A stretch of 63,517 bases of DNA, the filler included, from Folioceros fuciformis (Eukaryota): the NCBI GenBank assembly GCA_049999805.1. It is 21 parts of 21 records of this genome, joined end to end, with 100 filler letters (N's around TTAATTAATTAA, not from the genome) between each part and the next. Parts side by side here need not be neighbours in the genome. Positions count along the whole stretch, not along the records: positions 20,100 to 23,453 come from JBNGIO010000354.1; 20 more parts are not named here. One strand, 5' to 3'. The notes under the pieces were generated by a model, which saw only the letters and a program-made list of their open reading frames with translations, was not told the DNA's origin and ran no database searches. Positions 19,561-51,667 of the stretch are shown piece after piece (position 1 is the stretch's first letter; each line of letters opens with the position of its first letter). The position numbers and the translations under genes were made by a program.

Positions 19561-20518
19561 CACCTTAGGCCCTTCTTGCGTGGCCACCTGCTCTCGGCCC
19601 TCGGTCCCAGGCACCGCTGTCCCCGTATCCCGCTTCCACCAGCATCGACCAAAGAGAGCCCCGCTCGCCTTCCATGACGTCCTAGGGTTTACTATTCCTC
19701 CGTCACCTTACCCCAGGAACCAGAGCCCACGTCCTATCTACCACTCAACCTACCTACCCTATCGACTCACCATCACTCTAGCTACTATTCTAAGCTAACC
19801 TTCCAACCTTTCCTCTACAACACTCACTCACAAATCCCAAAAAAAAGAAAACCTATCATTTCTCAGGGGTCTGTTCAGCATGTGGAGTCCACAGCTAGCA
19901 AGAACCAAGAACGGGTGGAGGACTAAGAGGATCAAGGAGCTAAAATGGCGGTTGTTCACTAAGGTGGTTCTTGGATTGGTGAACTTTCAACGCACCTCAN
20001 NNNNNNNNNNNNNNNNNNNNNNNNNNNNNNNNNNNNNNNNNNNTTAATTAATTAANNNNNNNNNNNNNNNNNNNNNNNNNNNNNNNNNNNNNNNNNNNNT
20101 CTGCCTACTACTGTATGACTCCATATACCAATTGACGCTGTCTGTCCTGGTGTGGGACCGCTGACCGGGCGCGGGCCAGAGGTAGAGCTTCGCATTCCTC
20201 GTCCCTGTAATATGCTAGACCTGATTCATCAAAGTGCGGAGCCCTGTTTTCTCATCCATCACGTCCAGCAAGTGGAGGACGTGGCAGATCTCTTGCAATT
20301 GAACGTGTTCAGGATGAAGTCAAAAACTTGTGGAGATGCCTGAGGTGATCATGGCGGCACAAGCTGGGTAGCTGCAATTGCATGTAGAGTGTCACTACAG
20401 TAGGTATTGGAGAAAGGATACACACAAAAGGAACTCGAGAAGCAAAAGATCGAGCTGCATTATTCTTGCCAAGGAAAGATATTGGCTGACTGACGCCGAC
20501 TCTCTCCGACCTTGCCAT

Positions 20519-23350
20519 TGTTAAAATGAATAGCACGCTAACCCTTAGGGCTCGTTTGGATTTTACGTTTTAGGATCCGATAGGGTACTCAGCAAAAAGT
20601 CATGAACATGCGGTTATGTTTTAGCATAACGTTTGGGCACAGTCCCCATGCTCACAACATTCTGTAGCACATGAACTTATAATCAATCTACCACTACGAT
20701 TTCGTCTCTCGGTCCATCTAACCGCAACATGGTATCAGAGCAGGATCCATCTGACCGCAACATGGTATCAGAGCAGGATCCATCTGACCGCAACATGGTA
20801 TCAGAGCAGGATCCATCTGACCGCAACATGGTATCAGAGCAGGATCCATCTGACCGCAACATGGTATCAGAGCAGGATCCATCTGACCGCAACATGGTAT
20901 CAGAGCAGGATCCATCTGACCGCAACATGGTATCAGAGCAGGATCCATCTGACCGCAACATGGTATCAGAGCAGGATCCATCTGACCGCAACATGGTATC
21001 AGAGCAGGATCCATCTGATCGCAACATGGTATCAGAGCAGGATCCATCTGACTGCAACATGGTATCTGACCGCAACATGGTATCAGAGCAGGACCCCTGC
21101 GCGTCGATCGCCCATCCAGCCAACTCATAAAGCCACATCTTCCATATCTCCATGCCAGGAGACAGAAGGCGTCAGTGCCTTGAAAGAAGAGCACGGCGAC
21201 AAACCGAACACCTAGAAAATCTAAGATCTTGCATAGAGCAGCAAAATCTAAAAGAAGCAAGGCAGAATTTATGGCATTATGGTTGGAACATTACCTGCAG
21301 CGTCCTATTGCTGATTGGAGAAGAACTCTCCCTCAGTGGATACGTGGACGCAAGTGAATATGATTGGGCTTACCTTCAAGTGGAATTCCTCTTCCACCAA
21401 TCATGAAGAAGGAATTTAGCACCACACTGGACATCACTGCCCCTATTTCTCTACCAAATGTCAGAGAGCAACTCACCTCCTATCTTGGATACCTAAGCCG
21501 CCATCACGGCCTCTTCAGACTTCCATCTGCACAAGAAATTGCATATCTCCACAATTCTGTGATAGACAAACTAATCAAATTAGACCAACCACACGCACAC
21601 ATCAAATCTCCCCAACGGACATACAGGATTCTCATCACTATGCACCTAGAAATCACCAGCATAATTAGAAACACTGTGTTCAGTGTTTAGACACCTACAC
21701 AGAACATAAACCAAAAAACAAGACAAAATGAGCTCCTCCATTAGCCTCTCCAAAGAAGACCGCTTCGATGGTCAGCAGCATAACTTTGCTGTATGGAAAT
21801 TCAGGAATTATCCGATATATTGAAGGAACATAAATTCTGGGCCTACGCCGGGGGCATTTGGCAGCCCACCCATCGTTACCGCACACCCTGGTGCATCAGC
21901 CACTGCAACAGAACAGGAGGCATGGGAAAACAAGAATCAGCAGGCGAAAAACGTCATTATGCAATCCATAAGACACAGCAACGTGCAAGAAATCTCTGGA
22001 GCAGAAACAGCAGCCCAAGCATGGACACAACTACATGAAATCTATGCCTCTAATAACATCATGCACATAGTGCATACCCTCAAAAACTTCTTCGGCCTGA
22101 AGATGGGAGAAGGTGATCCCGTCGACAATCACGTCATGCTTTTTCGCAGCTGGACTACCAAGTTTTTCTCTACAGGCTTCACCTTGACAGAGGATTTACA
22201 AGCTGCAATCCTCCTCACCACTTTACCAGAATCGTGGGTAACAGTGGTACAATCTCTACAAGGTGTCAAACCACTCACAGTCAATAAAGTTATCAGCTCC
22301 ATGTTAACAGAGGAAGCACGTAGAAAACTTGCAGCCACCTCAAGTTCAGGGGAGACTTCACATGCCTTCTTCTCAGGCCGCGGCAGATCCAGAGGTAGAG
22401 GCAGACCACCATTTAGAGGACAAAGCTCTCGTGGGAGAGGCGCTTGCACCTACCGAGGCAGAGGCACCTACAACCCAACATGGAAGAAGATCTGCAGTTA
22501 TTGCAAAATACCAGGCCACACATAAGAGGAGTGCAGGAAAAGAATGGCCAATCAGAACCAAAGGTACTTACCTCCCACAGGGCAATTGGCCCTCACAATG
22601 AAGCGTCATTCTAAGGCTTTTCTTACCAGCTGCAGCCCTCCTCTTTCAAACCCCAACCCATCCGCCCTAGTAGCCTCCTGCTTCTCAGCCCATGGATCCC
22701 ATGCCTGGTATATTGACTCTGGAGCCTCACAACACATGACTCCACACATCGAATACTTTACAAATCTGAACCCCATAACCTCAAAACAATTTGTCAGTCT
22801 GGGAGATGACACCCGACACCCCATTCAGGGATATGGTTCAGTACAATTGGCCCTACAGCCCTCTACTTCCTTACAAATATTAGACGTCCTTCACGTACCC
22901 AGTTTAACCAAAAACCTCTTCTCTGTCCGAAAGGTAGATGAATCCGGATGTTATATATGCTTTGGCCAAGGCCGCTGCGTAATCGAGTTTCCACAAGGGG
23001 AAGTATTGGTCACAGGCGATTTAAGAAGCGACGATCTGTATCATCTGAACACATCCACTCCACCCGTTCCTTCCCTTACAGCCAGTACATAGAAAAACCA
23101 ATCCTACCTATGGCATGCCCGACTTGGGCACATGCACCTTCAACGAATGAAAGATACAATTTCAACAACAGCAGCTACTAGCATTCCTCTTACCAAGGTG
23201 GAGGATTTTGGCCCATGCGAAGCATGCACTTTAGGGAAGAGCCACCATACTCCTTTCCCCAAGGGCCCTACCACAAGAGCCACCAACAAATTACAACTGG
23301 TGCATTTGGACCTCTGTGGTCCCTTTAAAAGATCTCTCCACAGCCATTTA
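20519..23350 (+). mobile_element. Ty1/copia element: 5' LTR (20519-20729), amplified PBS, extra 5' ORF, gag-PR-integrase start; decayed
   Basis: TGTT...AACA LTR. gag starts at 21728 (KEDRFDG..NFAVWKFR), with zinc knuckle CSYCKIPGH, protease WYIDSGAS, and integrase CEAC...LVHLDLCGP. Confidence 0.9.
20713..21093 (+). repeat. 33-bp tandem array of LTR 3' end + tRNA-iMet PBS
   Basis: Unit TCCATCTGACCGCAACATGGTATCAGAGCAGGA. TGGTATCAGAGC occurs at 20730+33k (k=0-9), truncated at 21060 and full at 21078. Confidence 0.97.
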
Positions 23351-23453
23351 TACTTTAGGGTTTAGGGTTCTTTTAAAGGATCTTTTAAAGGGACCGCAGA
23401 GGTCCGAATGCACCAGTTGTAATTTGTTGGTGGCTCTTGTGGTAGGGCCCTTG
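23260..23453. repeat. 75-bp inverted repeat (fold-back) with telomeric filler
   Basis: 23260-23334 is the reverse complement of 23379-23453 with 2 mismatches. TTTAGGGTTTAGGGTT lies at 23354-23369. Confidence 0.92.
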
Positions 23454-23553
23454 NNNNNNNNNNNNNNNNNNNNNNNNNNNNNNNNNNNNNNNNNNNNTTA
23501 ATTAATTAANNNNNNNNNNNNNNNNNNNNNNNNNNNNNNNNNNNNNNNNNNNN

Positions 23554-28380: not shown

Positions 28381-31230
28381 ACAAAAGTGGCTCCACTCAT
28401 CAAGGAAAGAGAGGAAGTATACTGCTCTCCAAAGGACTGTGTCGACATAGGTCCACAAACATCGGAATGAATTACCTCAAGCAAAGAAGTAGCCCTTGTT
28501 GGAGAAGGGTTGTTATACGGTTTTTGGGTAAGTTTCCCTATTTGGCAGCTTTCACATAAGAGGGTAGGGTCGGTTTTAAGCGTAAAACCATCCTTATACA
28601 AGTGTGCGTTTTGTGCTACCCGATCAACATAAGCAAGACTTGGATGACATAATCCACATTGCCATAGGCAGGTAGTGCTAACTTCTGGATTAGCATCTGC
28701 AACGTGAACTTGATGTGTGTTAGGTTGACAGTTGCCTTGTGTTACGATCAGGTGATAAAGGTCATGGTATGGTGAGCCATTGGCTAAAACTAGAGAAGGT
28801 TGTGAAGCTGGGGAAACTACACAATTTGTGGGAGTGAAAACGACTTGTAGACTATGGTCACAGGTGAGCTTATGGACTGACAGCAAGTTCTTAGTCATTT
28901 GAGAAACATGTAGAACTCCCTTCAACAGTATGTTGTATCTATGGTTGAGTCCTAGTTTAACATTGCTAGTCCCTTGAATAGAGAGTCCATTGTCGTCTCC
29001 TAACAAGACCAATTGATTTGTTGTATTAAGGGAGTATGTACAAAACATGTCCTACGAGTGGCAGATGTGGTTGGTCGCTCCAGAGTTCAAAAACCACATG
29101 TTTCTGTTTGCCTTGGTAAGTGACAGACACACTGCTAGTATAGCTGGTGTCTTATTGTTGGTACTTGCTGTTGTAGATTGTACAACCACATTAGTTTCAG
29201 CTGCAGGTCGATGTGCTTTGCCTGATTGTTTTTTGCAGCACTCACTCTCAAAATGCCCTGGGATCCTGCACCAGTTGCATGGTCCTTTCACTCTCCAGGG
29301 AGTGAAGGAATTCTGTGGTACTGATTGTCCACTATAGGGACGTCAAGGTGCAGAGAAGTATCCTCGGCCTCGACCCCTACCTCGACCATGAGAGGTAAAC
29401 AACACGTGCTGTTGATTAGAGGAGGAGGGTCTTCCAGCTCCTATTCTGCTAGATTCCTCCTCCAACAAGGCACCCATTACCTCTGACAGAGTAATAGTGG
29501 AGCCTAATTGTCAAAGCAAGGTAGATTGAGAGCTGACAAATGTCCGATAACTTGCTGGCAGGGATGTTAGAAGAACAGTGGCAGCCTTCAACTCAGTCAG
29601 GGTCTCTCCAGCGGCTGCTAAACGTGCTCCCAAGGTCCGAAACCGATGAAGGTGATGTTCCACTGTTTCACTTTCTTTCATTCGAAGAGAATAGAATATT
29701 CGAGTGCAGTTAATAAGTGACATGGAATCTTTAGCAGCGAACATGTCATGGAATACTTTCCAAACATCGTGTGCGACATGTGACTTGTCCTTGTGTATGT
29801 TGCATCATGTTTTTGTCAAGTGCTGAAAGTTATATATTCCTTGCCTTTTTGTCTTTCTTGTGCCATGTTGCAATTACATTCACGGCACTTCGTCCTACAG
29901 AAGGTGTTGGATTTGTGGTAGGGGCTGCAAGTGAACCGTCCACAATATCCATAAGCTCATGCTCTTCAAGAATTGCAACCATTTGCATCTGCCAGACTGC
30001 AAAATCGGTGGCATTAAACCCGTCCCTGTCTTTGAAGGCGATCTTAATAGACATTTTAATAGTGATAAGTGATGGTGCATTAGCTAAATTCTCCTAAACG
30101 GGAGATTGACTCAGTGCTATGACATACTACTGTAGGTAACCAACTAAGAGGATACCATACAGGACTAATAGTTTTTAGTTGAAAAGTGTAGCAAGTCCTA
30201 TGAGGACTGACTCTACACGTTTAGGTATAGAAGAAAAAGAACTCAAGTTTTCTGGTTCAGGTAGGGGAGAATAAATCTTATCTGGAGCTTGAGAAGTGGA
30301 AGGCATGTTGCAAACATAGGAGGCAGATTGATCATTGAGTGTGACTGATTCTGCTTTGATACATGTGCCAAAAACATAGGTATGCACAAGTGTTGACAAC
30401 TGTTTGACCTTCTCTTCAAGTTGATTTATCTATTTCCTAAGCATTATGTTTTCAATTTTGATCCTTCGCTGGGAATCATGAGTATGTTCTTCTAAAGCTT
30501 GAATCTTATAGAGGATTGGTTCTATATGTTTAGGCACTAAGTAAGCGACCTATTTATGCTCTCTGAAGTGTGATTGATGATCCTATTGCCTGGATATATG
30601 TGCAAGATAGGATTTTTCTCTAAAAGGGAGACAGGGGGTGCAGCAAATGCAAGAATTGTTATAGCCAGTAACAATGTGAGATGACCTATGATTTACTTGG
30701 CATCTACAATATAGCCAGTAACAATGTGAGATGACCTATGATTTACTTGGCATCTACAATATAGCCTGTAACAATGTGAGATGACCTATGATTTACTTGG
30801 CATCTACAATATTCTGCTACAGCAATTCTTTGTCATTGCTGCGCTAGGCTATCGTAAACTCGAAAGCATTGTAGGGTTAAGTGAGGAGGAATCTTGGTAT
30901 GAAAAACTGCATAGCACGCCAACGGCGGTAGACAATTTGGATTATTCATCCAAACAAAAGGATGAGTGACTTGCTGTCAAAGAATGTCTCACACTAGCGC
31001 GCCAAGTAGATGATCATAATAATCTTACAGCTTTGATACCATAAACGATTGGAAGCACACATCGCGACATGTAGAACAGGAAGTTGTAACCGTTTCGTAA
31101 TTAGGAATTAATTTAAACTACTCGCTAATCCAGCTAGAATAAGCTTGCCGAATATTTCACATTTGGACTGAACTAGTGATATTGATAATATCTCAATAAT
31201 TAGGATTCCTGGACAAGGTGTCGGCATTCT
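28381..31230 (-). mobile_element. Ty1/copia element A: LTR remnant, PBS (31030-31041), upstream coding extension, gag, PR, integrase N-terminus; decayed
   Basis: PBS TGGTATCAAAGC; gag FKDRDGFNATDFAVWQ; CNWCRIPGH; WFLNSGATNH; CESC...IHSDVCGP. Confidence 0.9.
30661..30812 (+). repeat. 50-bp tandem repeat x3 in the leader of element A
   Basis: ATAGCCAGTAACAATGTGAGATGACCTATGATTTACTTGGCATCTACAAT occurs three times (1 mismatch). Confidence 0.95.
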
Positions 31231-35250: not shown

Positions 35251-36800
35251 AGTTTCTAAACCTCTTTTGGCGCCACATCCTTTGTTGGTGAATAACGCGT
35301 GAGTGCTAGATGGGGTTGCCCTGTGATTCATGGGCCTGCTGGATTCTTCCTCTAGGAGAACCGCAACTACCTCAGTGAATGTGTAAGTAGATGGCTGTCC
35401 TACTGCAGTTGCCTGGATTGCCGCTCGAATTGCCGAGTTTTGTGCACTAATGAATGTTCTGTATATGGAAGGCAAGGAAGTTAGGAGAGGGATTAGAAGA
35501 TAACGGTACCTCTTGAGGCTAGCTTTGCCCTGAAGGATTGGAACACATTCACATGTTGTTCCACCGTATCCGACTCATTCATTCTCAGGGAGTAGAATTG
35601 CCTAGTCGCATTAATGAGGGACATGCTGCTTTGGGCTTGGAACATGCCTTTAAAGGTCTTCCAGACTGCGTGGGAGGAAGTTTGGCCACTAGTGTGTTGA
35701 AGCATGCTTTTGTCAATAGCACAGATGAGGATGCTTATGGCACGTTTGTCCTTCTTAGACCAAGCTGCGATCTGGTTAGCAGTTGCAGGTGAGGTAGATG
35801 TGGTAGTCGGTGAGGGGATTGTACCATCAACGATACCCATGAGGTTGTGTTCTTCTAGCAGCGCAGTGATGCACATCTGCCAGATTTCGTAATCGCTTCC
35901 CGTGAAGCGATCTCTATCTCGAAACTCTACTTTGGTTGTATTGACGATGCTGGTGGCCATTGCTATGCGATTTACAAGACGGGTGAGTCTTTTAGCAAGC
36001 AAGTTTGTAGTATGCTGACCTAGTGGATTGAAGCGAGGCATACACTTGTTCAGAGTGCTTCTGATTCATTATGGGTGTGTAGAGGTAGATTGGAGATGGC
36101 AACGAGAAGTGCCTCCATTTGTGACTTGATCAGTACTAGCTAGCTCTTAAGGTAATCCTCGGAGGAGATTTCTGGATTGCGAAGCACTTGGGAAGTTGTG
36201 CTGCTACGGCGTGCAGGTAGGACTGTCACTCTGTGAATTCTTGAGAAATTTCTTGCTTCAAGAAGGTGGTCAGGTTGAGTGACAAAGGTGTCCCCATGGC
36301 AGGCGCAAAATCGCTCTAGTGGTGGCATTGCTAATCGTGCGCAGCAAGACTGTGTAAAAGCATTCCTACTCAGGGAATTCCTGCTCGGGGCATAGCTTGC
36401 AGGGGTGCGGCGCCGAGGCATCGTAGATGGCTTAGGAATGTTGAAGGTTGCCTTTGTTGCTCCGGGTGTGCGCCATGTCGAGTGGCTAAGGAGAGCTAAG
36501 GAGAAACGCGAGGCGCGTGCACGAAGCTAGACGGGGCATGACTCCTTCGCTCTGATACCATAAAAATGAGCCAAAGCTTTTGAGAAAAGGATAATCTACA
36601 TTGATAATGAAGGGGTATTTATACAATGGATTATTGCAGTTATAACTGCCGGTTCTTAATAACTAACTCTAAGTCTAACTGCCGAGGTAAAACTTGGATA
36701 ACTGCTATTTATTGAATTTAAGTATTAAATTAATTATCCACACATGTAAACTATGCCCTTAAGTGCTGCTTCCAGTGTAGTCGGCGCATATGTCACAACA
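35251..36800 (-). mobile_element. Ty1/copia element C 5' end: LTR (36561-36800), PBS (36549-36560), upstream ORF remnant, gag
   Basis: Perfect PBS TGGTATCAGAGC; gag KVEFRDRDRFTGSDYEIWQ, related to the gag of elements A and B. Confidence 0.9.
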
Positions 36801-41291: not shown

Positions 41292-43171
41292 NNNNNNNNN
41301 NNNNNNNNNNNNNNNNNNNNNNNNNNNNNNNNNNNTTAATTAATTAANNNNNNNNNNNNNNNNNNNNNNNNNNNNNNNNNNNNNNNNNNNNCACCCCAGG
41401 GTCAGTCTTCCATGGCCGAGGAACCATTTCGGCTGGAAGCTGATTCTGCTGAATAAGCTACCGTTTTCAGCCCAGGTTCCGACTACTGATCCCATTGCTT
41501 CTTACCTCCTCTGTATCTTTCCCACTACTCTACTTCTCCCCTGGAGGCTGGCTCAACCACCAAGGGTGAATAGTTGCAGGGGAAGACTTAGCGGGCGGCC
41601 ATCCAGCAAGGAAGAGGCGGCGTCCGCAGATCTTTGAAGATCAGACATCCTCCGAAGTCTCAGGATAGTCTAAGAGGTGGTAGATCCTTGTGGTGGTAGG
41701 GCCAGCTCATTGGTGGCAGGATGTGCTAGAAGTCTAAATAAGTGGCTTGTGACAGCCGGCTAGGCTAGTGGTCCTATTAAAATAATATTTATCAAGCTAG
41801 AGAGAGGTGAAGTCAGAGAGAGAGAGGCTCCTATAAGATCAGGTGAGCCTGTAGGAGGAGGTAGTCATTCACTTTGGGAGTCAGTCTGTCACTTCGTGAG
41901 CTCTTGGAGGTACTCTCTACATAAGCTCTTGCGGTCTGTCTCTGCTTGGTTTAGGACCTGCAGTGTGTTGCCGGCTGTGCAATGTCTGGTAGGATCGCAA
42001 GGTGTAATGACCAGGGTGAAGGGGCTTGCCCCTAGCTCTTGATTGTAAAGGATGTGTCTTTCTCTCGACCTGTCCACTCTTGTTCCCTGTTTGGACAAGT
42101 GCTGTAGGCCGGCCATGTTTCATGGCGTCTGGTAAGGTTGTGGGGAGGAGATATCCAAGAGGAGAGTGTGTTCCCTTCTTTCTTTTCTTTGGGGTTAGTA
42201 TAGTGACTCTTGCCGGGTAGGAGGAGTCAATAGGGAAGTGTAGAAGGTAATGGTGTCGTTGTTAGTTGCTGGTGTTGGTGCTGGAGTGAGAGAGCGAGTG
42301 AAGTGAGTGAGGGAAGTTGCAGATTTGAGAGGTTAGGGTCGTTGTAGTGACTGGAGTGAGTTTGTGGGCACCAATAGAGGTGCAGCTGACTGCTGGACAG
42401 TGAGGCTTGTCCTACGCCTGATTGGAGCTGGAGGGGAGCCTTTGAATCCATTACCAAGTCGATTGAGTCCGACCCTCCTTCCATAACAGCGAGGAACCTC
42501 ATCGCTCCTTCATGGGAACGGAACCCAATGTCTCAACAACAGTGGGATAAGTGTGGCCACTAAAGGTGGAACCCGTCAACAATTAGTGCCCGGGGTTTTG
42601 CCTCCACAACGGTAGACTTGAAGTTTTGTACTAGTCGACCAAGCAAATGACAGCAAACATCTTGACCAAGTCATTGAGCTTTGTGAAGCATCAACAACAC
42701 TACGCATGTATGGGCTTGAGAAGATTATTATAGATGATTAGTAATATTTAAAGGCTAGCCATGTCTAGCATTGAAACTTAAGCACCTAATACTCGCACAT
42801 TAAGTAGGAGTGTTCAGATATGTAGTGTTCTAAGCATCAGGGCACGCTTTGTGCCGATCATGGAACATCACTCAATTAAGCGATTACTTGTATACCACTA
42901 TTGCACCACAAGAGCAGCACTCTCTGTACATTCATTTAGATTAAATCCATATGCCTATGCACATCAATCAAAAGCATCCCCTCATGATTTCCTCCCCCTC
43001 GATTCCTCTTCCTTGTCCCTCTCCTTTCCACACCATGCTTAGGATCTTCACTCCCCTCCTCGATTTTTCCCNNNNNNNNNNNNNNNNNNNNNNNNNNNNN
43101 NNNNNNNNNNNNNNNTTAATTAATTAANNNNNNNNNNNNNNNNNNNNNNNNNNNNNNNNNNNNNNNNNNNN

Positions 43172-44020
43172 TTCAGCAATTGTGGGTAGGGCAGGGCTTT
43201 TACACCTTCTTCCTCGCATGTGTGAGGCTGACTAGCCCATGGCGCTCTGTATCCAACTCCAAACAGCTGCAACAATATTTAGAAATACATCATGAGGAAT
43301 TCCCAGCCTGCAAGCTTGTTCAACCTATACATGCAGAAATTCCTCCTTCAAAATGGCATGCTCTCTCATAGCTACAAGTGCCCACTTTCGCCTCTCATTT
43401 CTCATCCAAATTGGACCCTTATCGGGCTTGACATTCCTGTGTACCTTTGCAATTCTCCTTCTCACAATCTCCTGCCTTCGCAAAGTACTGGCTTCTCGCT
43501 CTATTCATTCATGCTCAAAGTATGTTTGCCCTTGAGCATATGCAGCATCCCACTCTGGCCTGAAGCCTCTCATGTCTCTCCTCATTGCTATGCCTAGAGA
43601 CTTCTGCTTCAGCTTCCACCTCATGTGGATTTAATACAGCATCATTACCGTCTTCTTCAAGAGCCATGTTCACACTTAGCACGTTACAGTGCTCACATAA
43701 CCATTCTCCTTTTGGAACATTGTCCAGTGCTGGTTTGAGACAAAACAAATGGTAACCACGATTACATCTGTCACATAACAACATGAACTCTTCGTCAGTT
43801 GTGTGCCCACACTCCTCACAGGGTAATATGTTGGTGGCATCCAGGCCGGAGGCACAGTTTGTGTGTCCAAGTTAGGCAAATGGCATGGATCCAAGTGCTT
43901 CATGTGCTCCTTGCACCTTTTGCCATCTCTTTCTTCAAGTTCAACCACACCCTACTTACCAACATGCACAACTCTCAAGATAAGCCTCCTTGTGCTGACA
44001 TCCAGCATGCTTGCAGGCCT
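43172..44020 (-). mobile_element. Ty3/gypsy integrase C-terminal region with PHD finger
   Basis: CEECG...MLLCDRCNRGYHLFCLKPAL..VPKGEWLCEHC follows VELEERDGK...PCHLPNLD. Continues the gypsy at 49887-51667. Confidence 0.75.
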
Positions 44021-47000
44021 TGTTAGAGTAGGTTAAGTACATTAAGTTACTAACAGGATTAGGGCTAGACAGTTGGAAACCCTAACCGTCACTAGGTCTT
44101 GGTCATGTGACTAAGAATAATGTACATCCTTTTCTTCTTTCTTACGCCAATACACACGTTTGATCCTTCTCATGGTATTAGAGCTCTAGTGATCTGCGAC
44201 ATGCGCCATTTATCTGGCGCATGATTATGGTATCCTTGGCATCGCCGAATGGGCCGGCGATGCCAATGCGGATCCTTTGCCATCATTCCGGTTTTCTGGA
44301 ATTTTGCACAAATTATTTGACGCCTCTTGGCTTTGCTACTTTCTATCTAATTTAGCGCTCTATTTCCTAAAAATTATGGACGGTTGCTTTGGTGCAGCAG
44401 TCCTATGTGTGTAGATGCCTTAAGGCACCTTGCCTACAAGAATGCACATACACATGTTTGTCAACATCTTAAGATGCCCGGCCTTAGAAAACAGCAATGA
44501 CTAGCAAGAAGGGCACAATGTCAGCACACGCTCACCGAGTGGTTGGCAGCCAGGGTCAGAGATTATACGCTTATCTTGGGAGACACGCGGTGGCAACAAA
44601 TTTGGGTGCGTATGTATAACATCTTGGAACTAATGGCTACCTCTGTCTATCCTAGCCTCGACGGATATGACTAGAGCCACCAAGATGTTGCCCCCAAGAA
44701 TTGCATTTATCTCTATCCTCTATCTTTCTACAATTATATGTATGTGTACCCCTTATATGTATGTTGCACAACAACATATGTGACGTATTTTCAGCGAATC
44801 AGTAAAACTGTCAGCAACTTTAATTGATCAATATGCAAAGCACTTTCCCTATTACATATGCTTAGAATTAAACACATCAGAATTAGAAATAGTGACGATT
44901 ACCTTACAACTATGTAGGGAACCAAGTTAGCAATCCTCCCTGAAAGCTAACTATGTCTCAATAATGCTATAAATTTGTAGCAGTTCCTACCATGACCCAG
45001 CAGCAAATGAACAATCCGTCTTTGCATTTTAATTCAACCATACCTAAAGAAGACAAGTTTGATGGTACTAATTTCCATGTCAGGAAATTTCGCATGATTG
45101 AATTGCTCAAGTCAAGAAAGCTCTGGGCTCATGTCCATAGCACAGGAAGTCCACCAGTCCCTACGCCAAAGCCACCTACAACTCAACCTGATGAGGTGGC
45201 AAAATGGGAGGAAAACGATCAGCTGGCCAGAACGTTGCTCCATTTCAACGTTAAAAGTACACACATCAATGTATTCCAAGGCACACAAGAACTTGCATCG
45301 AATTGGTGGAAACAAGTGTTAATGGTCTATGACTCTAGAGATTTGATGCTGCAAACCTATGTGCTTCACCAATTCACTAGCCTTAAGATGTCTGATAGAG
45401 AGCCAGTTGACAAACATGTGCGTGCTAGAATTTAGAAACTAGAGGGATAAGATGCTTTCTGCTAGTTTTGACTTGGAAGAGGAGTTCATGGCCGTCTTCT
45501 TTCTAACCATGCTCCCTGAATCATGGTCAAGTGTGGTCCACACCCTCCAGGATGTTCCTACACTCATAGTGAACAGAGTGATTGCTGCAATGCTTACCGA
45601 GGAGTCCAAGAGAAAGATTGCAAGCACATCTATTTCTAGCAGCCGCATAGACTAGGGGTTGTACATGAATCGACCTATCAGAGGTTGAGGGCAAGGCCGT
45701 CCTTTGCCAGAGGACGCGGAGGATGTGGAGGTCGAGGAGCATTTCAACCCTAACAGTTTGGTAGCACAAGGCCAAAGCCTCCATGAGGGTTATGTGGCAT
45801 GCAAAATCATACATAGGAAGTGTGTCCCAAGTGACTGTCAGGAGAGAGTGGCCCATCTTCAGGCCACTTAGCTGTGACAATGAGCAAATACAGCAAAGCA
45901 TTCCTTACCCAAGTTGTGAAGTCTCCAACAACGTTTTCTGATGACATTAAATTACAGCACTCTTGTGATGTGGACTCATGCTATGCTAACCAGCCAGCAC
46001 ATGCCTGGTACATCAACAGTGGTGCTTCCCAGCACATGAATCCTCACTTGGCCTACTTCACAGAAATGAGGAGCTGTACACCAGCGGAGTACGTGTGCTT
46101 AGGAGACGATACCAAGCACCACATTGAAGGTCAGGGGACCACTAGACTCGACCTTATGCTGTCTCATTATGTGGAGATCCCTAATGTGTTGTATGTTACG
46201 GGACTTACTAAAAATTTGGTCTCGGTGAGGAAAATCGATGAGTCTGGATGCTTTATATGCTTTGGTGGAGGAAAATGTGTTGTAGAGTCAAGCGTAGGGA
46301 CTCTCCTTGCAACTGGACATCTGCAAAATGACGATCTATATCACCTCGATCTGCAGACAGCAAAGGCCAATGTTGTTCAGTCATCATCCAGGTTTGCAAA
46401 GCCATCTCAAACATATTTATGGCACCTCTGCCTTGGCCATACAAACTATCACAAGGTAGTACATATGTACAAACACAACATGGTGGACAGGCTCACCTTA
46501 GATAAGCTTGATGATGTTGGAGTTTGCAAGTCTTGTGTCCTGGGCAAGCCTGAAAGGACCCCCTTTCCTACAAACGCCTCTACTAGGGCCACAGAGGTAC
46601 TTGGATTAGTCCACAGCAATGTATGTGGGACTTTGCCTAAATCTCTTGGCAGGAAGGAATATTTTCTTACATTTATTGATGACTACACTCGATTTTGCAT
46701 AGTCTACTTCCTCCGCCACAAGTCTAATACATGTTCATACTTCCTGGAGTATAAAGCTTGGGCCGAATTACAAACTAGTGCCAACCTAAAGAAGCTTCGC
46801 ACCATCAATGGTGACGAGTTCCTCTCCGGAGAGTTCAACGCCTACTACACACAGCATAGCATTGTCAGACAGCTCACAAATGCATACACACCCCAGCAAA
46901 ATGGGGTAGCTGAACACAAGAATGATGACCCGGAGACGTCAGCTTCGAGCATGCTTCAATATACAGCCCTGCCTAGCAGCTATTGGGTAGAGGCCGTGGC

Positions 47001-49782
47001 CTATGCCACTTACATTCAGAACCGCATTGCTTACAGTTGTGTGCCGGAGAAAACTCCATACGATCTCTAGACAGGAAGAAGATCGGGTGTAGCCCACATG
47101 CGAGTTTTTGGCTCTACAGTGTATGCACAAGTCCAAAAAGACATTCTTAAGAAGTTCGAGCCTAAGTTGAAGGAATGCATTTTTGTGGGCTTTGCCGAAG
47201 GCATTAAAGGTTACAAGTTGCTGAATTGACAAACAAGGAAGATGACACACTCAAGAGATGTGGTGTTTGTCGAAGGAGTTGCGCCAAACCTCATAGTGGG
47301 AGAAGTAGCCAGCTCAGAGTGGGATAACGAAGGAGACAACAACTCAGAAGACCAAGAGGAGATCATTGTTGGTGACATGCATGTACCGCTGCCTACACCA
47401 CAACCACAAGGTCAGCAGCAGCAAGTTTCAACCTGTTTGCCTCCACAAGTACCAATAGTCTCCCAGCAAACACCAGCAGCTAACCTAAGGCCAACACTCC
47501 GTACACTTGTAAAGATGTCAACCGAGGAGCCTAAGAGTAAAAAACAAACTCCTTAGCAAAGGAAAACACACAAGTACGCTTACCCGAAGCCAAGGTCTTC
47601 AACAAGGACACGCAAGCCTCCCGACTATTGGGTACCTGAAGACTTTAGGCATCCAAAGTCGCATTTGACTTATTGCCTAGTAGCATACTTGAAGGCTTTT
47701 TGAGCCATAGTCCTATGAAGAAGCATTATCATGCCCTGATGCGAAATTATGGCAAAAGGCCATCGATTTCTGAGCTAGGCTCATTGTATGCGAACAAGAC
47801 CTAGTCCCTAACAAGCCTACTTGCACATCGCAAGGCTGTTGGGTCCAAATGGGTCTTCAAGTCAAAGATGCGGGTAGACGGCAATATCGATAGATACAAA
47901 GCAAGGGTTGTTGTAAAAGGATACTCACAAATTCATGGAGTTGACTACAACAATACATTGAATTTCAGTCCAGTCGTCAAGCTAACAACACTTAGATTGT
48001 TTGTGGCACTTGTAGCAATGGGAGACTATGAACTGGAATAGCTAGACGTGACCACTACTTTCCTATATGGGAACCTCCAAGAGAAAATCTACATGTCAGT
48101 GCCTTCAGGATTTGACATTCCACGTGGCTTGCAAAATCCAGTATGCAAGTTGCATAAATCCTTCTATGGGCTCAAACAGAGCCCAAGGGCCTGGTACTCA
48201 CGCATAGACAGCTATCTCAAGTTGATTGGTTATGAGAACATCAATGCTGATAGCAATGTTTACATAAAGAGAGAAGGGAGAGAGTTTTTGGCACTTGCTA
48301 TATATGTCGACGACATAATTATAATGAGTAACTCCTTCCAGATGATAGAAGAACTGAGACAATAGCTAAGCAGAGCATGCAAGACGACTACTGGAGGAGC
48401 TCTGGCGTTTTGCCTTGGCATGTACTTGCTACGAAATCGCAAGAATGGAACCATATTCAAGAGCATCAGACAAAGTATGCATAAGAAATCCTTGCAAAAT
48501 TCGAGATGAGTAACTGCAAGCCCATCTCAACACCTATCGAGCAAAACACCAAGTATTATGCACAGGTGGGTGACATACTTACAGAGGACGTAGAGAAGGT
48601 ATAACAATATCTTTCTAGAAATGGAAGTGTTATGCATTTGGTGATAGGGTCTCGTCCAGACTTGGCATTTAGCTCTGGCCTGACCTCAAGGTTTGTTTCA
48701 AACCCAAACATGCAGCATAATGCTCTGATGACAAGGCTCTACAGGTATATAGCAACCACCTACGACTAGGACATCATGTATAGCTGAAAATCCAAGAATG
48801 CATTGCAGTTAGTGGCGTATAGTGACGCCGATTGGGCCACCGACCCTGATAGCAAAAAGAGCATTTCTAGCTATGTTACCTTGCTTGCCGAAGGTGCTGT
48901 GGGCTGGAGCAATAGGAGACATACCACAATCACACTCTCTTTGACAGAGGCCGAGTACAAGAGCCTCATAGAGGCCCGCAAAGAGGTAACATGGACAGTG
49001 GGAGCTCTGTGGGAGCTGGGAGTAGTACAAAGTCTACCGGTCAGCTTGTTTTGCGACAATCAAAGTGTGATCTCAGCATGAACCCCCGGTTCCACGCGAG
49101 GACGAAGCACATTGAAATTCAACACCATTATATCTGGGAAGTGATTGCAACAGGAGTGGTGGAGATTATCTACTACCCGACATAAGAGATGACGGCCGAT
49201 ATCCTCACGAAGAGTCTTGGGCGCATTAAGCACTACTAGCACGCCACCGGCCTTGGACTTTGCATTGCAGGAGAACCCATCGAGTGGAGCAGGGTGCCCA
49301 ATCAGCAACTCTAACAGAGCTCGGGCGTAGCCGTGCAATGACTGGAGCACAAGTGAATGAACAAAAGTGATGACGCCGAATAGTTACCATGATGATCACC
49401 ACGATGATCACTGGAATCATGCCTGCCCTTGGGGAAGGTGAGCCCCATAGCCCTCGGGGGAATTTGAGGGTTAAGACTGGATGGTCTTAGCAGTCCGTTA
49501 GTATCAGGGTGGTGGGAAGCTTTTTCCACGTCTTGTCTAGAGGGCTGGACACGAGATCGATTTTTCTCCCGATCCTGTACACATGCTATGTAAATACGTA
49601 GGTAGGGGTCCCCTTGGTATTGTAGGAGGACGACAATATTAATCTGAATATTTTCTTCGTGAAAAAAAAAGCTAAAAAGTCGGCCTACCCAAGTTTCTGG
49701 ATTTTAGGTCTAGGTCGTCCAAGTTTCTTTAGCAAGTTTAAGTTTCTTCTATGTCATGTCGATATAGATAAGCAAACAATAA

Positions 49783-49818
<36 letters not shown>

Positions 49819-49886
49819 GTGTATAGATAGCCCTCTCACCTGAGTGGGAGTGTTAGAGTAGGTTAAGTACTTTAACTTACTAACAG
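44021..49886 (+). mobile_element. Near full-length decayed Ty1/copia element nested in gypsy: 5' LTR 44021-44172, PBS 44173, extra 5' ORF, gag-pol 44992-49270, PPT, truncated 3' LTR 49851-49886
   Basis: TGTTAGAGTAGGTTAAGTAC occurs at 44021 and 49851. Domain order is gag-PR-IN-RT-RH, with many C->T type stops. Confidence 0.95.
49787..49813. repeat. (TA)n microsatellite
   Basis: Direct TA run. Confidence 0.95.
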
Positions 49887-51667
49887 AGACTCAGATCTCC
49901 TGTGAGACTCCTGTTCAGCAAGGTCTGGAATTCAGCTCGAAACTCGTTACCCTGGTCTATGAGCACCTATGCGCAGCTCCCAAATCTGCTGAGCACACAC
50001 TGTAGAAAGGCTCTGCTAGTGTAATGCAAAGTTCTCTGTGGCAAGAAGGCTACCTCAACCCACTTAGAGAAGTCCTCAATCATGACCATGCAATGTCGGT
50101 TACCTTGCTTCGTGAGAGGAAGCTCTGGCATAAGATCAACCGACCATCTGAAAAATAGTCCTATGATTGGTAGGGAGTGCAACATCACATTGTGGGTGTT
50201 GAATATGGCTTTGACTGTGTCACATATAGCAAACTTAGCCACCACCTTCTCAACATCTGCATACAACCTTGACTAGAAATACGTATTCTTCAACATGTGG
50301 TGTGTCCTCTTCACACCAAAGTGGCCAAGGGTTTCGTGCACTTTAGTCACCATCCCAACCCTTTCCTCATGGCTTGGAACTTTCTTCACGAGCTCTCCCT
50401 CTGATAGCGGCAACTCACCATTTCTCCATGAGTATTTGGCCACGCACCTCCTGAGCTTAGCCAAGCCTGCTTCAGTGATTCCAGGCATTATGCTTTCCTT
50501 CAGCAGCTGTAGGGCTTGAGGATGTCTCCACACATCCTTGACAGACTTTGTCAACACCTGTCCTTCTTCATGCTCATCGGTCCCGGCGATGAGTGCCATG
50601 AAGCTATTGGGTGCACCATTTATGTGCCCCTCATCCTGTCGAGCTCCTGTGACATCCTTGTCACTCTCCAGTGGATTTTTGCTTAGCCCATTTGCATTGT
50701 GATGCACCTTGCTTGCCTTGTGCACGACCTCCATATCGTACTCAGATACCAGCAGCACCCACCTAGCTATCTTACCACTCAATTTCATATTGGTCATCAG
50801 CCAATGTAATGGCTAGTTATAAGTGACCAATTGAAAATGCCTTCCATACAGATAAACCCTAAAATGTAGAACTGCCCACACTGCAGCAAGACACTCTCCC
50901 TCATATGAGAAGTAGTTCACTTCATCAGAGTTGTTAGACCGGCTTGCATAAGCCATAACTCATTCAACACCATCTATACCATGCTATAACAACACCGCTC
51001 CAATTCCCGCAGTGCTCCAATTTGTGTACAAAGTGAAAGGAAGATCAAAGTCCGGCCTAGCCAACATAGGCTTCTCCACCAATTGATCCTGCAGATCCTG
51101 CCAAGCCAGCTCCTAGTCTTGGTCCCATTTCCACGCAACGTCCTTCTTCAACAGCTCATACAGAGATTTACAAGTGGAACTGATGTCCATCATAAACCTC
51201 CTGTAATAGTTCACCAACCCCAGGAATGCTCTGAGAGCAGCTACATCCTTTGGCCTAGGCATCTGCATCATCGCCTGCACCTTAGCCAGCTATGGCATAA
51301 TGCCTCCGGGCACTATCTCATGCCCGAGATACTTGATCTGTTGGAAAGAAAACTTGCATTTCTTAGGATGAGCTTTCAAACCTAAGCTAGACAACCTCTG
51401 TAGCAATATCTCCAGATGATCCATATGCTCTTCGATTGTCTCACTGAAAACCATGATGTCATCTATGTAACAATGCACAAATGGCAGCCCCTGTAGCTCT
51501 AGATCCACAACTCTCTGGAAATATATGGAAGCATTCTTCAGCCCAAACGACATCGTCTCCCACTCCCAAGGCTGGTCCTTCCCCCCAAAGGCTGTCTTGC
51601 ACTTATCCTACTCTTCAATTACAATTTGGTTGAAGCCTGAGCAAAAATCCAAGCTGGTAAAGAATTT
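49887..51667 (-). mobile_element. Ty3/gypsy RT-RNase H-integrase fragment
   Basis: MSFGLKNA, CYIDD, KYLGH, RWVLLVSEYD, GHFG, SKWVEV in gypsy order RT-RH-IN. Confidence 0.93.

Follow-up and report, generated by a model that had tools for sequence, protein, structure and literature searches.

Long terminal repeat (LTR) retrotransposons can carry open reading frames (ORFs) in addition to gag and pol. According to Vicient and Casacuberta (PMC7264820), these extra ORFs can precede or follow gag-pol and may have one or the other orientation, the position between pol and the 3' LTR being the commonest. Neumann et al. 2019 (PMC6317226) surveyed extra ORFs with a minimum length of 250 codons. Their Additional file 5 gives sense 5' extra ORFs for the gypsy lineages Tekay (33%), TatII (23%) and Ogre (21%). 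Of the 16 copia lineages in this file, 13 have a dash in all four extra-ORF columns, SIRE has a sense 3' ORF (74%) with entries in the 3' columns only, and the rows of Bianca and Ikeros hold two small numbers that are not assignable to an extra-ORF column. An ORF0 located 5' of gag-pol is described for Retrosat2/FRetro3 (PMC3485330, PMC4093653). In the description of the grapevine copia family Noble, leaders of 270-700 bases that follow TGGTATCAGAGCC are called untranslated, and they are compared, for their variation in size, with those of Tvv1, which has an LTR of 149 bp (PMC2576258). The prevailing view is that copia elements encode only gag-pol (plus a 3' ORF in SIRE) and that their long leaders are untranslated; our literature searches brought up no account of a copia leader with a conserved sense ORF. 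We analysed a stretch of 63,517 nucleotides from Folioceros fuciformis (assembly GCA_049999805.1), hereafter the window, in which a short conserved ORF, named ORF A, is located between the PBS (primer-binding site) and gag of two Ty1/copia elements (element 1 and element 2).

The gypsy 5' ORFs (Ogre ORF1, ORF0 of Retrosat2/FRetro3, and eORF-5'F of Tekay and TatII) are, like ORF A, in sense orientation between the 5' LTR/PBS and gag. As portrayed in these sources (PMC6317226, PMC3485330, PMC4093653), they are also lineage-specific, fast-evolving and of no known function. However, they belong to large elements, and those counted in the survey have at least 250 codons, whereas ORF A comprises about 80 codons in copia elements of about 6 kb with LTRs of 150-210 bp. 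In a comparison made by Pfam, ORF A matched none of the domains of gypsy extra ORFs (PF10536, PF04195 and PF03078). The Ogre/Retrosat2-type 5' ORF is moreover bound to a gypsy host, whereas the hosts of ORF A are copia elements. The earlier note on this DNA considered 5' extra ORFs typical of gypsy and not of copia. This agrees roughly with the lineages listed by Neumann et al. (Tekay, TatII and Ogre), but the floor of 250 codons misses an ORF of 84 codons such as ORF A. ORF A has the general features of an extra ORF (aORF/eORF), since it lies outside gag-pol and is conserved in both of the two related elements seen. The env-like eORF-3'F of SIRE is likewise a sense extra ORF of Ty1/copia that diverges between families (PMC6317226, PMC7264820). 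It is nevertheless located 3' of pol, long and often predicted as membrane-spanning, whereas ORF A is located 5' of gag, short and without a clear membrane segment. Tvv1 and Noble share with elements 1 and 2 the short LTRs starting with TGTT, a PBS of the form TGGTATCAGAGC and a stretch of several hundred bases as leader (PMC2576258). Their leaders are described in that source as untranslated and length-variable, with no conserved ORF reported there, whereas the leader is here partly conserved as protein.

ORF A of element 1 (21152..21406, plus strand) is intact and consists of 84 codons followed by a TGA (21404-21406). Its counterpart in element 2 (44474..44692, plus strand) contains two in-frame stops, TGA at 44498-44500 (codon 9) and TAG at 44672-44674 (codon 67). 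They face TGC and TGG in element 1, and each is one base apart from the codon it faces, in agreement with the earlier note, which had read them as single-base changes. Homology and collinearity unite the two ORFs, which start at the same ATG and are conserved as protein and not as DNA. The translations given previously from 21152 and 44474 both read as given, and all the common motifs are present (MPGxRxxQxLxRRAxxQ, ExL, WxxxW-x6-LxL, and a YD after which element 1 has W and element 2 a stop). However, the interval 21152..21690, first taken as a single ORF, is not one: ORF A ends at 21406, and 21403-21690 corresponds to another ORF in a different frame (ORF B, described below). The corrected coordinates of the conserved ORF are 21152-21406 and 44474-44692.

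A single BLASTP comparison of ORF A with its element 2 counterpart gives 25 identical residues out of 75 (E 4e-5). The two leaders, from the end of the PBS to the gag ATG, were translated in the three sense frames and the nine frame pairs were submitted to local alignment. The pair containing ORF A reaches a score of 66; the other eight sense pairs score 25-33, and none of the 18 pairs involving an antisense frame exceeds 34. The best-of-nine score on 200 dinucleotide shuffles has a mean of 34.8 (sd 3.6, maximum 45), and the observed score is 8.8 sd higher. When each ORF is searched with tblastn in the six frames of the window, its best match other than itself is the other ORF (E 0.026 and 0.004; runners-up 1.5 and 0.46). 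In contrast to the protein, the leader DNA shows no significant likeness (local nucleotide score of 15, against 12.2 with sd 1.5 and maximum 18 for shuffles). The likeness begins exactly at an ATG common to both elements and extends to about position 21370 in element 1.

Stop-to-stop pieces of element 1 of at least 25 residues (three frames, 21090-23453) were also searched against element 2. The matches are collinear from ORF A through gag and protease to integrase, with identities of 34% over 70 amino acids (ORF A), 57% over 21 (start of gag), 30% over 76 (middle of gag), 47% over 94 (end of gag), 49% over 179 (protease) and 40% over 87 (start of integrase). These values place ORF A about level, in conservation, with gag at its weakest. 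Two low-scoring out-of-frame matches (E 0.017 and 7.5e-4) were taken as noise. At this divergence, a leader without constraint is expected to show no likeness, and outside ORF A the leader has none: the interval that separates ORF A from gag, of about 320 bases (element 1) or about 300 (element 2), displays no similarity in any frame. The claim that an extra ORF between PBS and gag is shared by two diverged copia elements is therefore upheld by the homology, the collinearity and the single raised frame pair.

The distribution of the differences between the two ORFs follows the codons. In the protein-guided alignment of 79 codons, the identities at the first, second and third positions are 0.49, 0.53 and 0.28, for a random expectation of 0.25. 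Different codons are used for 15 of the 26 identical residues, including Leu (CTA/TTG) and Ser (TCC/AGC). The proportion of nonsynonymous differences (pN) is 0.49 against 0.83 for synonymous differences (pS); because the latter are saturated, dS is not estimable. In a neutral simulation where the 134 base differences were redistributed at random, 12.9 identical residues remained on average (sd 2.6), and none of the 5000 runs gave more than 24, whereas 26 are observed. The frame-naive alignment of the DNA with MAFFT is a fairer test, and gives identities of 38/72, 37/72 and 21/71 for the three positions (0.53, 0.51 and 0.30; chi-square p 0.0075; positions 1 and 2 against position 3, p 0.003). 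With a simple global DNA alignment, the identities by codon position are 0.65, 0.58 and 0.43 (p 0.026), the frame-naive p values ranging altogether from 0.003 to 0.03. The first 17 codons constitute the best-conserved part, and third positions agree in only four of them, so that the conservation of this front end is not that of an RNA signal. Since the likeness is found at the level of the protein and not of the DNA, it implies that ORF A was subject to purifying selection in the past, during the divergence of the two families, as the earlier note had deduced from protein conservation with diverged DNA; the three-base period (p 0.0075) bears this out.

From these data, ORF A is probably the remnant of a real small gene of about 75-84 codons, separate from gag, which belonged to a leader that the two short-LTR Ty1/copia families inherited from their common ancestor and was maintained by purifying selection. 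Such a gene would be translated from the full-length RNA of the element, in which it would be the first long ORF 3' of the PBS, and gag would then be reached through leaky scanning or reinitiation after ORF A. The predicted product of element 1 is composed of two contrasting halves. Residues 1-40 are basic (10 Arg/Lys, pI 10.5), while residues 41-84 are acidic and hydrophobic, with a pI of 4.1 and zero Arg/Lys. AlphaFold2, run on the single sequence with no alignment, predicts helices at residues 2-29, 33-62 and 67-82 (top model pLDDT 73.8 and pTM 0.50; 51-58 for the remaining four), from which we infer a product that is small and helical. The basic arginine-rich front half could serve in nucleic-acid binding or nuclear import and the acidic hydrophobic back half in protein contacts. 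The RNA-binding or nuclear localization role proposed in the earlier note is thus a possible one, deduced from the composition of this arginine-rich front half. The product may act on the RNA of the element itself, in its transport, packaging or translation.

If this reading is true, a selected leader gene would add an accessory function to the life cycle of copia elements, and ORF A would be a concrete candidate for the management of copia RNA or for the escape from host control. A class of retroelement genes would moreover be seen to escape surveys that use a long minimum ORF. The extra ORFs of LTR retrotransposons would thereby extend to a copia leader, which is for now a well-founded lead on two decayed copies.

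Several observations weigh against the small-gene reading. There are only two copies, both located in broken elements, and that of element 2 is interrupted by two in-frame stops. Other ATGs precede ORF A in both leaders, with several short upstream ORFs ahead of 44474 in element 2. The end of ORF A (stop and C-terminus) is not conserved. The alignments used for pN/pS and for the neutral simulation were guided by the protein score, which favours a positive outcome. The structural model was obtained from a single sequence with middling confidence, and every functional statement on ORF A is deduced from composition. The two word-based searches, which covered near and longer lengths, recovered no protein relative of ORF A, and the ESM Atlas gave no usable match. 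In contigs of the sequencing runs X1 and X2 (below), no further copy of ORF A was found at 80% likeness or more, and a contig with a gag paralogue, 93% alike over 21785-22154, ceases to match upstream of 21785.

The searches for relatives extended over several kinds of databases. With phmmer at E <=0.001 against 1.84 billion representative sequences, no relative of ORF A was recovered, this threshold being unreachable at 84 residues for a sequence as distant as that of element 2. For a query this short, searches in large databases are sensitive only to fairly close relatives. Pfam gave no match at E <=0.1 for ORF A and none for its element 2 counterpart, the best match in the PDB profile search has an E of only 2.8, and Foldseek against PDB gave nothing at E <=0.001, just generic helical bundles. 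The family and structure searches suggested in the earlier note have thus found neither a family nor a fold. Viral and metagenome contigs were scanned with the two-sequence alignment. None of the 71 pattern matches in viral contigs was confirmed; a single one of the 195 in metagenome contigs was (L001), which corresponds to an out-of-frame reading of pyrH in a bacterial tsf-pyrH-frr contig and was rejected as chance.

The DNA runs X1 and X2, obtained from one sample, contain the exact stretch, with one contig per run covering ORF A with zero differences, and the stretch may derive from them. Gag and protease draw additional contigs of these runs at 85-93% likeness. The contig of the 93% gag paralogue has 1719 more bases on the upstream side, which do not match the leader at 80% or more; leader sharing by close family members is therefore not shown. 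Judged from this contig, there is at least one close relative in gag that is without this leader or is rearranged there. No RNA run was present among the sequencing runs found to contain the stretch. Matches of run X4 are confined to conserved protease motifs. Run X3, from the same sample, shows 282 differing places over 21067-23453. Since these are nearly all C>T (87) or G>A (171), they look like a bisulfite-like conversion and are uninformative on paralogues.

Beyond the existence of a small gene, a more specific function can be imagined, and we regard it as rather unlikely. The product, encoded 5' of gag by a copia lineage of a poorly sampled group of land plants, would be a small trans-acting protein, whose arginine-rich helix binds the RNA of its own element and whose acidic, hydrophobic tail recruits host factors, as a regulator of the Rev or Tat type for the export, packaging or translation of RNA or as a shield against silencing, close to the anti-silencing activity evoked in the earlier note. 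In that case, the "untranslated leaders" of at least some short-LTR copia elements would be coding, and short 5' genes of this kind would have been overlooked because of the floor of 250 codons. The analogy with arginine-rich RNA-binding proteins of the Rev/Tat type is drawn from the composition and the predicted helix, and the searches for a match in sequence or fold gave none.

A cis-regulatory upstream ORF (uORF), whose translation affects that of gag by stalling or controlled reinitiation while the peptide itself has no role, is unlikely, but it is the alternative that survives best. Conserved-peptide uORFs are known in plant mRNAs and are defined by conservation at the peptide level, and ORF A is likewise conserved as a peptide, 5' of the main ORF and amid other upstream ATGs. 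In element 1, the stop of ORF A also overlaps the next ATG (ATGA). However, this overlap exists in one copy only, 84 codons are long for such a uORF, and ORF A is located in the RNA of a retroelement. Stalling peptides are usually conserved close to the stop, whereas ORF A is best conserved at its front end and neither its stop position nor its C-terminus is conserved.

It is more improbable that ORF A represents an N-terminal extension of Gag, joined to gag in intact relatives by splicing or through a frame that has since decayed. In element 1, the ATGs of ORF A and gag share the same frame at a distance of 576 bases, and ORF A is conserved to about the extent that gag is at its weakest. However, ten stops intervene in element 1, and the two ATGs of element 2, 518 bases apart, are in different frames. 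Moreover, the approximately 300 bases that separate ORF A from gag are dissimilar in all frames, the gag likeness begins near the gag ATG proper to each element, and there is no splice evidence. On the question of whether the ORF is separate from gag or fused to it, raised in the earlier note, these features favour a separate ORF.

The capture of a host exon is less probable again. By transduction, the ancestor would have acquired a host gene's first coding exon, and the protein-like conservation would come from inheritance with some selection, or else related host genes would have been captured twice. LTR retrotransposons are documented to capture genes (PMC7264820), and the likeness begins at an ATG. 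The phmmer search mentioned above recovered no host-like relative, a weak argument given that a relative of 84 residues with 33% identity is below its reach. That two independent captures would share both site and orientation is unlikely, and a single old capture kept by selection amounts to the small-gene explanation with an origin added. Lastly, a chance likeness or a non-coding leader signal (packaging or dimerisation) that mimics a protein is very improbable and largely refuted by the single raised frame pair at 8.8 sd above shuffles, by third positions at random level next to first and second positions about 50% identical, by the non-significant DNA score and by the absence of Rfam matches in the leader, even though only two sequences are involved, the frames were picked by eye and the RNA fold of 21090-21410 is slightly stabler than that of shuffles (z -2.2).

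The elements that carry the putative small gene belong to two short-LTR families of Ty1/copia, and both copies are in dead elements. The window consists of about 21 short contigs chained by 20 linkers, each with a core of 12 bases that has 44 N on either side, and the linkage of neighbouring features across a linker is therefore not shown. The 12 bases of the linker give stops in every frame (for instance at 20000-20099, 23454-23553 and 43072-43171). The content and composition of the window are repeat-rich and plant-like. Element 1 is included in the contig 20100-23453 and element 2 in the contig 43172-51667. The assignment of both hosts to Ty1/copia relies on Pfam, with Retrotran_gag_2 and Pol_BBD present in each of them. 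In element 1, gag is followed by Pol_BBD before the contig runs out, and the domain order in element 2 is Retrotran_gag_2, Pol_BBD, gag_pre-integrs, rve and RVT_2. In both elements a PBS of the initiator-Met type directly follows the terminal CA of the LTR (element 1, TGGTATCAGAGC; element 2, TGGTATTAGAGC). The assignment of this PBS type to tRNA-Met follows PMC2576258 and PMC6317226. The protease-integrase region of element 2 has an unnamed protein as its top match (69% identity), and the best named matches come from fern (35-40%), then pine and ginkgo. Because the named matches reach only 35-40%, the lineage is poorly represented in annotated data.

All the features of element 1 are on the plus strand. 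The presumed 5' LTR (20519..20729, 211 bp, TGTTA...CA) has its end set by the adjoining PBS, while its start (about 20519) is deduced from the termini only, namely the TG and the TGTTA common with element 2; there is no 3' LTR for comparison, as the contig stops at 23453. The PBS is included in a tandem array with a unit of 33 bp (20713..21089; 10.7 copies and 98% according to TRF). This unit is composed of the LTR's final 17 bases, the PBS and four further bases, and the array contains 11 exact PBS matches, the final one at 21078-21089. The array could be a product of slippage or of strand transfer, or an effect of assembly. Each 33-bp unit brings an in-frame ATG, which results in a repeat ORF of 133 codons. 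This array-spanning ORF (20729..21130), whose ATG is formed by the CA of the LTR and the TGG of the PBS, stops 21 bases 5' of ORF A, and with one PBS only it would be a short upstream ORF.

ORF B (21403..21690) has 95 codons from its ATG, is in another frame than ORF A and occupies most of the remaining leader. No counterpart was detectable in element 2 (frame pairs with ORF B score 27-32), codon periodicity is absent from the region (0.36/0.45/0.43) and no Pfam family was matched. A weak likeness to the leader 30055-31029, with a score of 43, is within noise. ORF B may have arisen by chance. Gag (ATG at 21728), protease and the start of integrase extend over 21728..23453, up to the end of the contig. 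Gag is damaged by an in-frame TGA (21821-21823), by frame changes at about 21805-21857 and by a TAA (22523-22525) located within the CCHC knuckle. A palindromic stretch at 23291-23422 resembles the Rfam family MIR9486 on both strands (56.5 and 52.7 bits, for a gathering score of 100), and is probably an inverted repeat at the end of the contig.

The other copia leaders of the window, next to the PBS at 31041, 36560 and 62988, contain no counterpart of ORF A. Two of them, 30055-31029 and 35961-36548 (minus strand), show a weaker likeness at the protein level in one frame pair, both sequences having stops. They belong to two other copia elements that are related and have their PBS at 31041 and 36560 and the start of gag at 30054 and 35960. 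The frame pair scores 54, while the remaining pairs score 25-37, and one of 200 shuffles reached this value. Judging by this score, the two leaders may represent a second family of leader ORFs.

Element 2 is also on the plus strand. Its 5' LTR (44021..44172, 152 bp, TGTTA...CA) is followed by the PBS (44173..44184), which has one mismatch to the initiator-Met type. Past 44692, the frame of the ORF A counterpart is open to 44827 but without similarity. The region encoding gag, protease, integrase, reverse transcriptase (RT) and RNase H (44992..49850) contains several stops and frame changes and ends with the purine run GAGTGGGAG. The first 36 bases of the 5' LTR recur directly behind this run (49851..49886, 94% identical), from which we deduce a truncated 3' LTR and a span of about 5.9 kb for the element. 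This 3' LTR remnant abuts ORFs of the minus strand (49887-51667) that resemble the RT and integrase of another retroelement, and the junction at 49887 suggests a nested insertion or a rearrangement.

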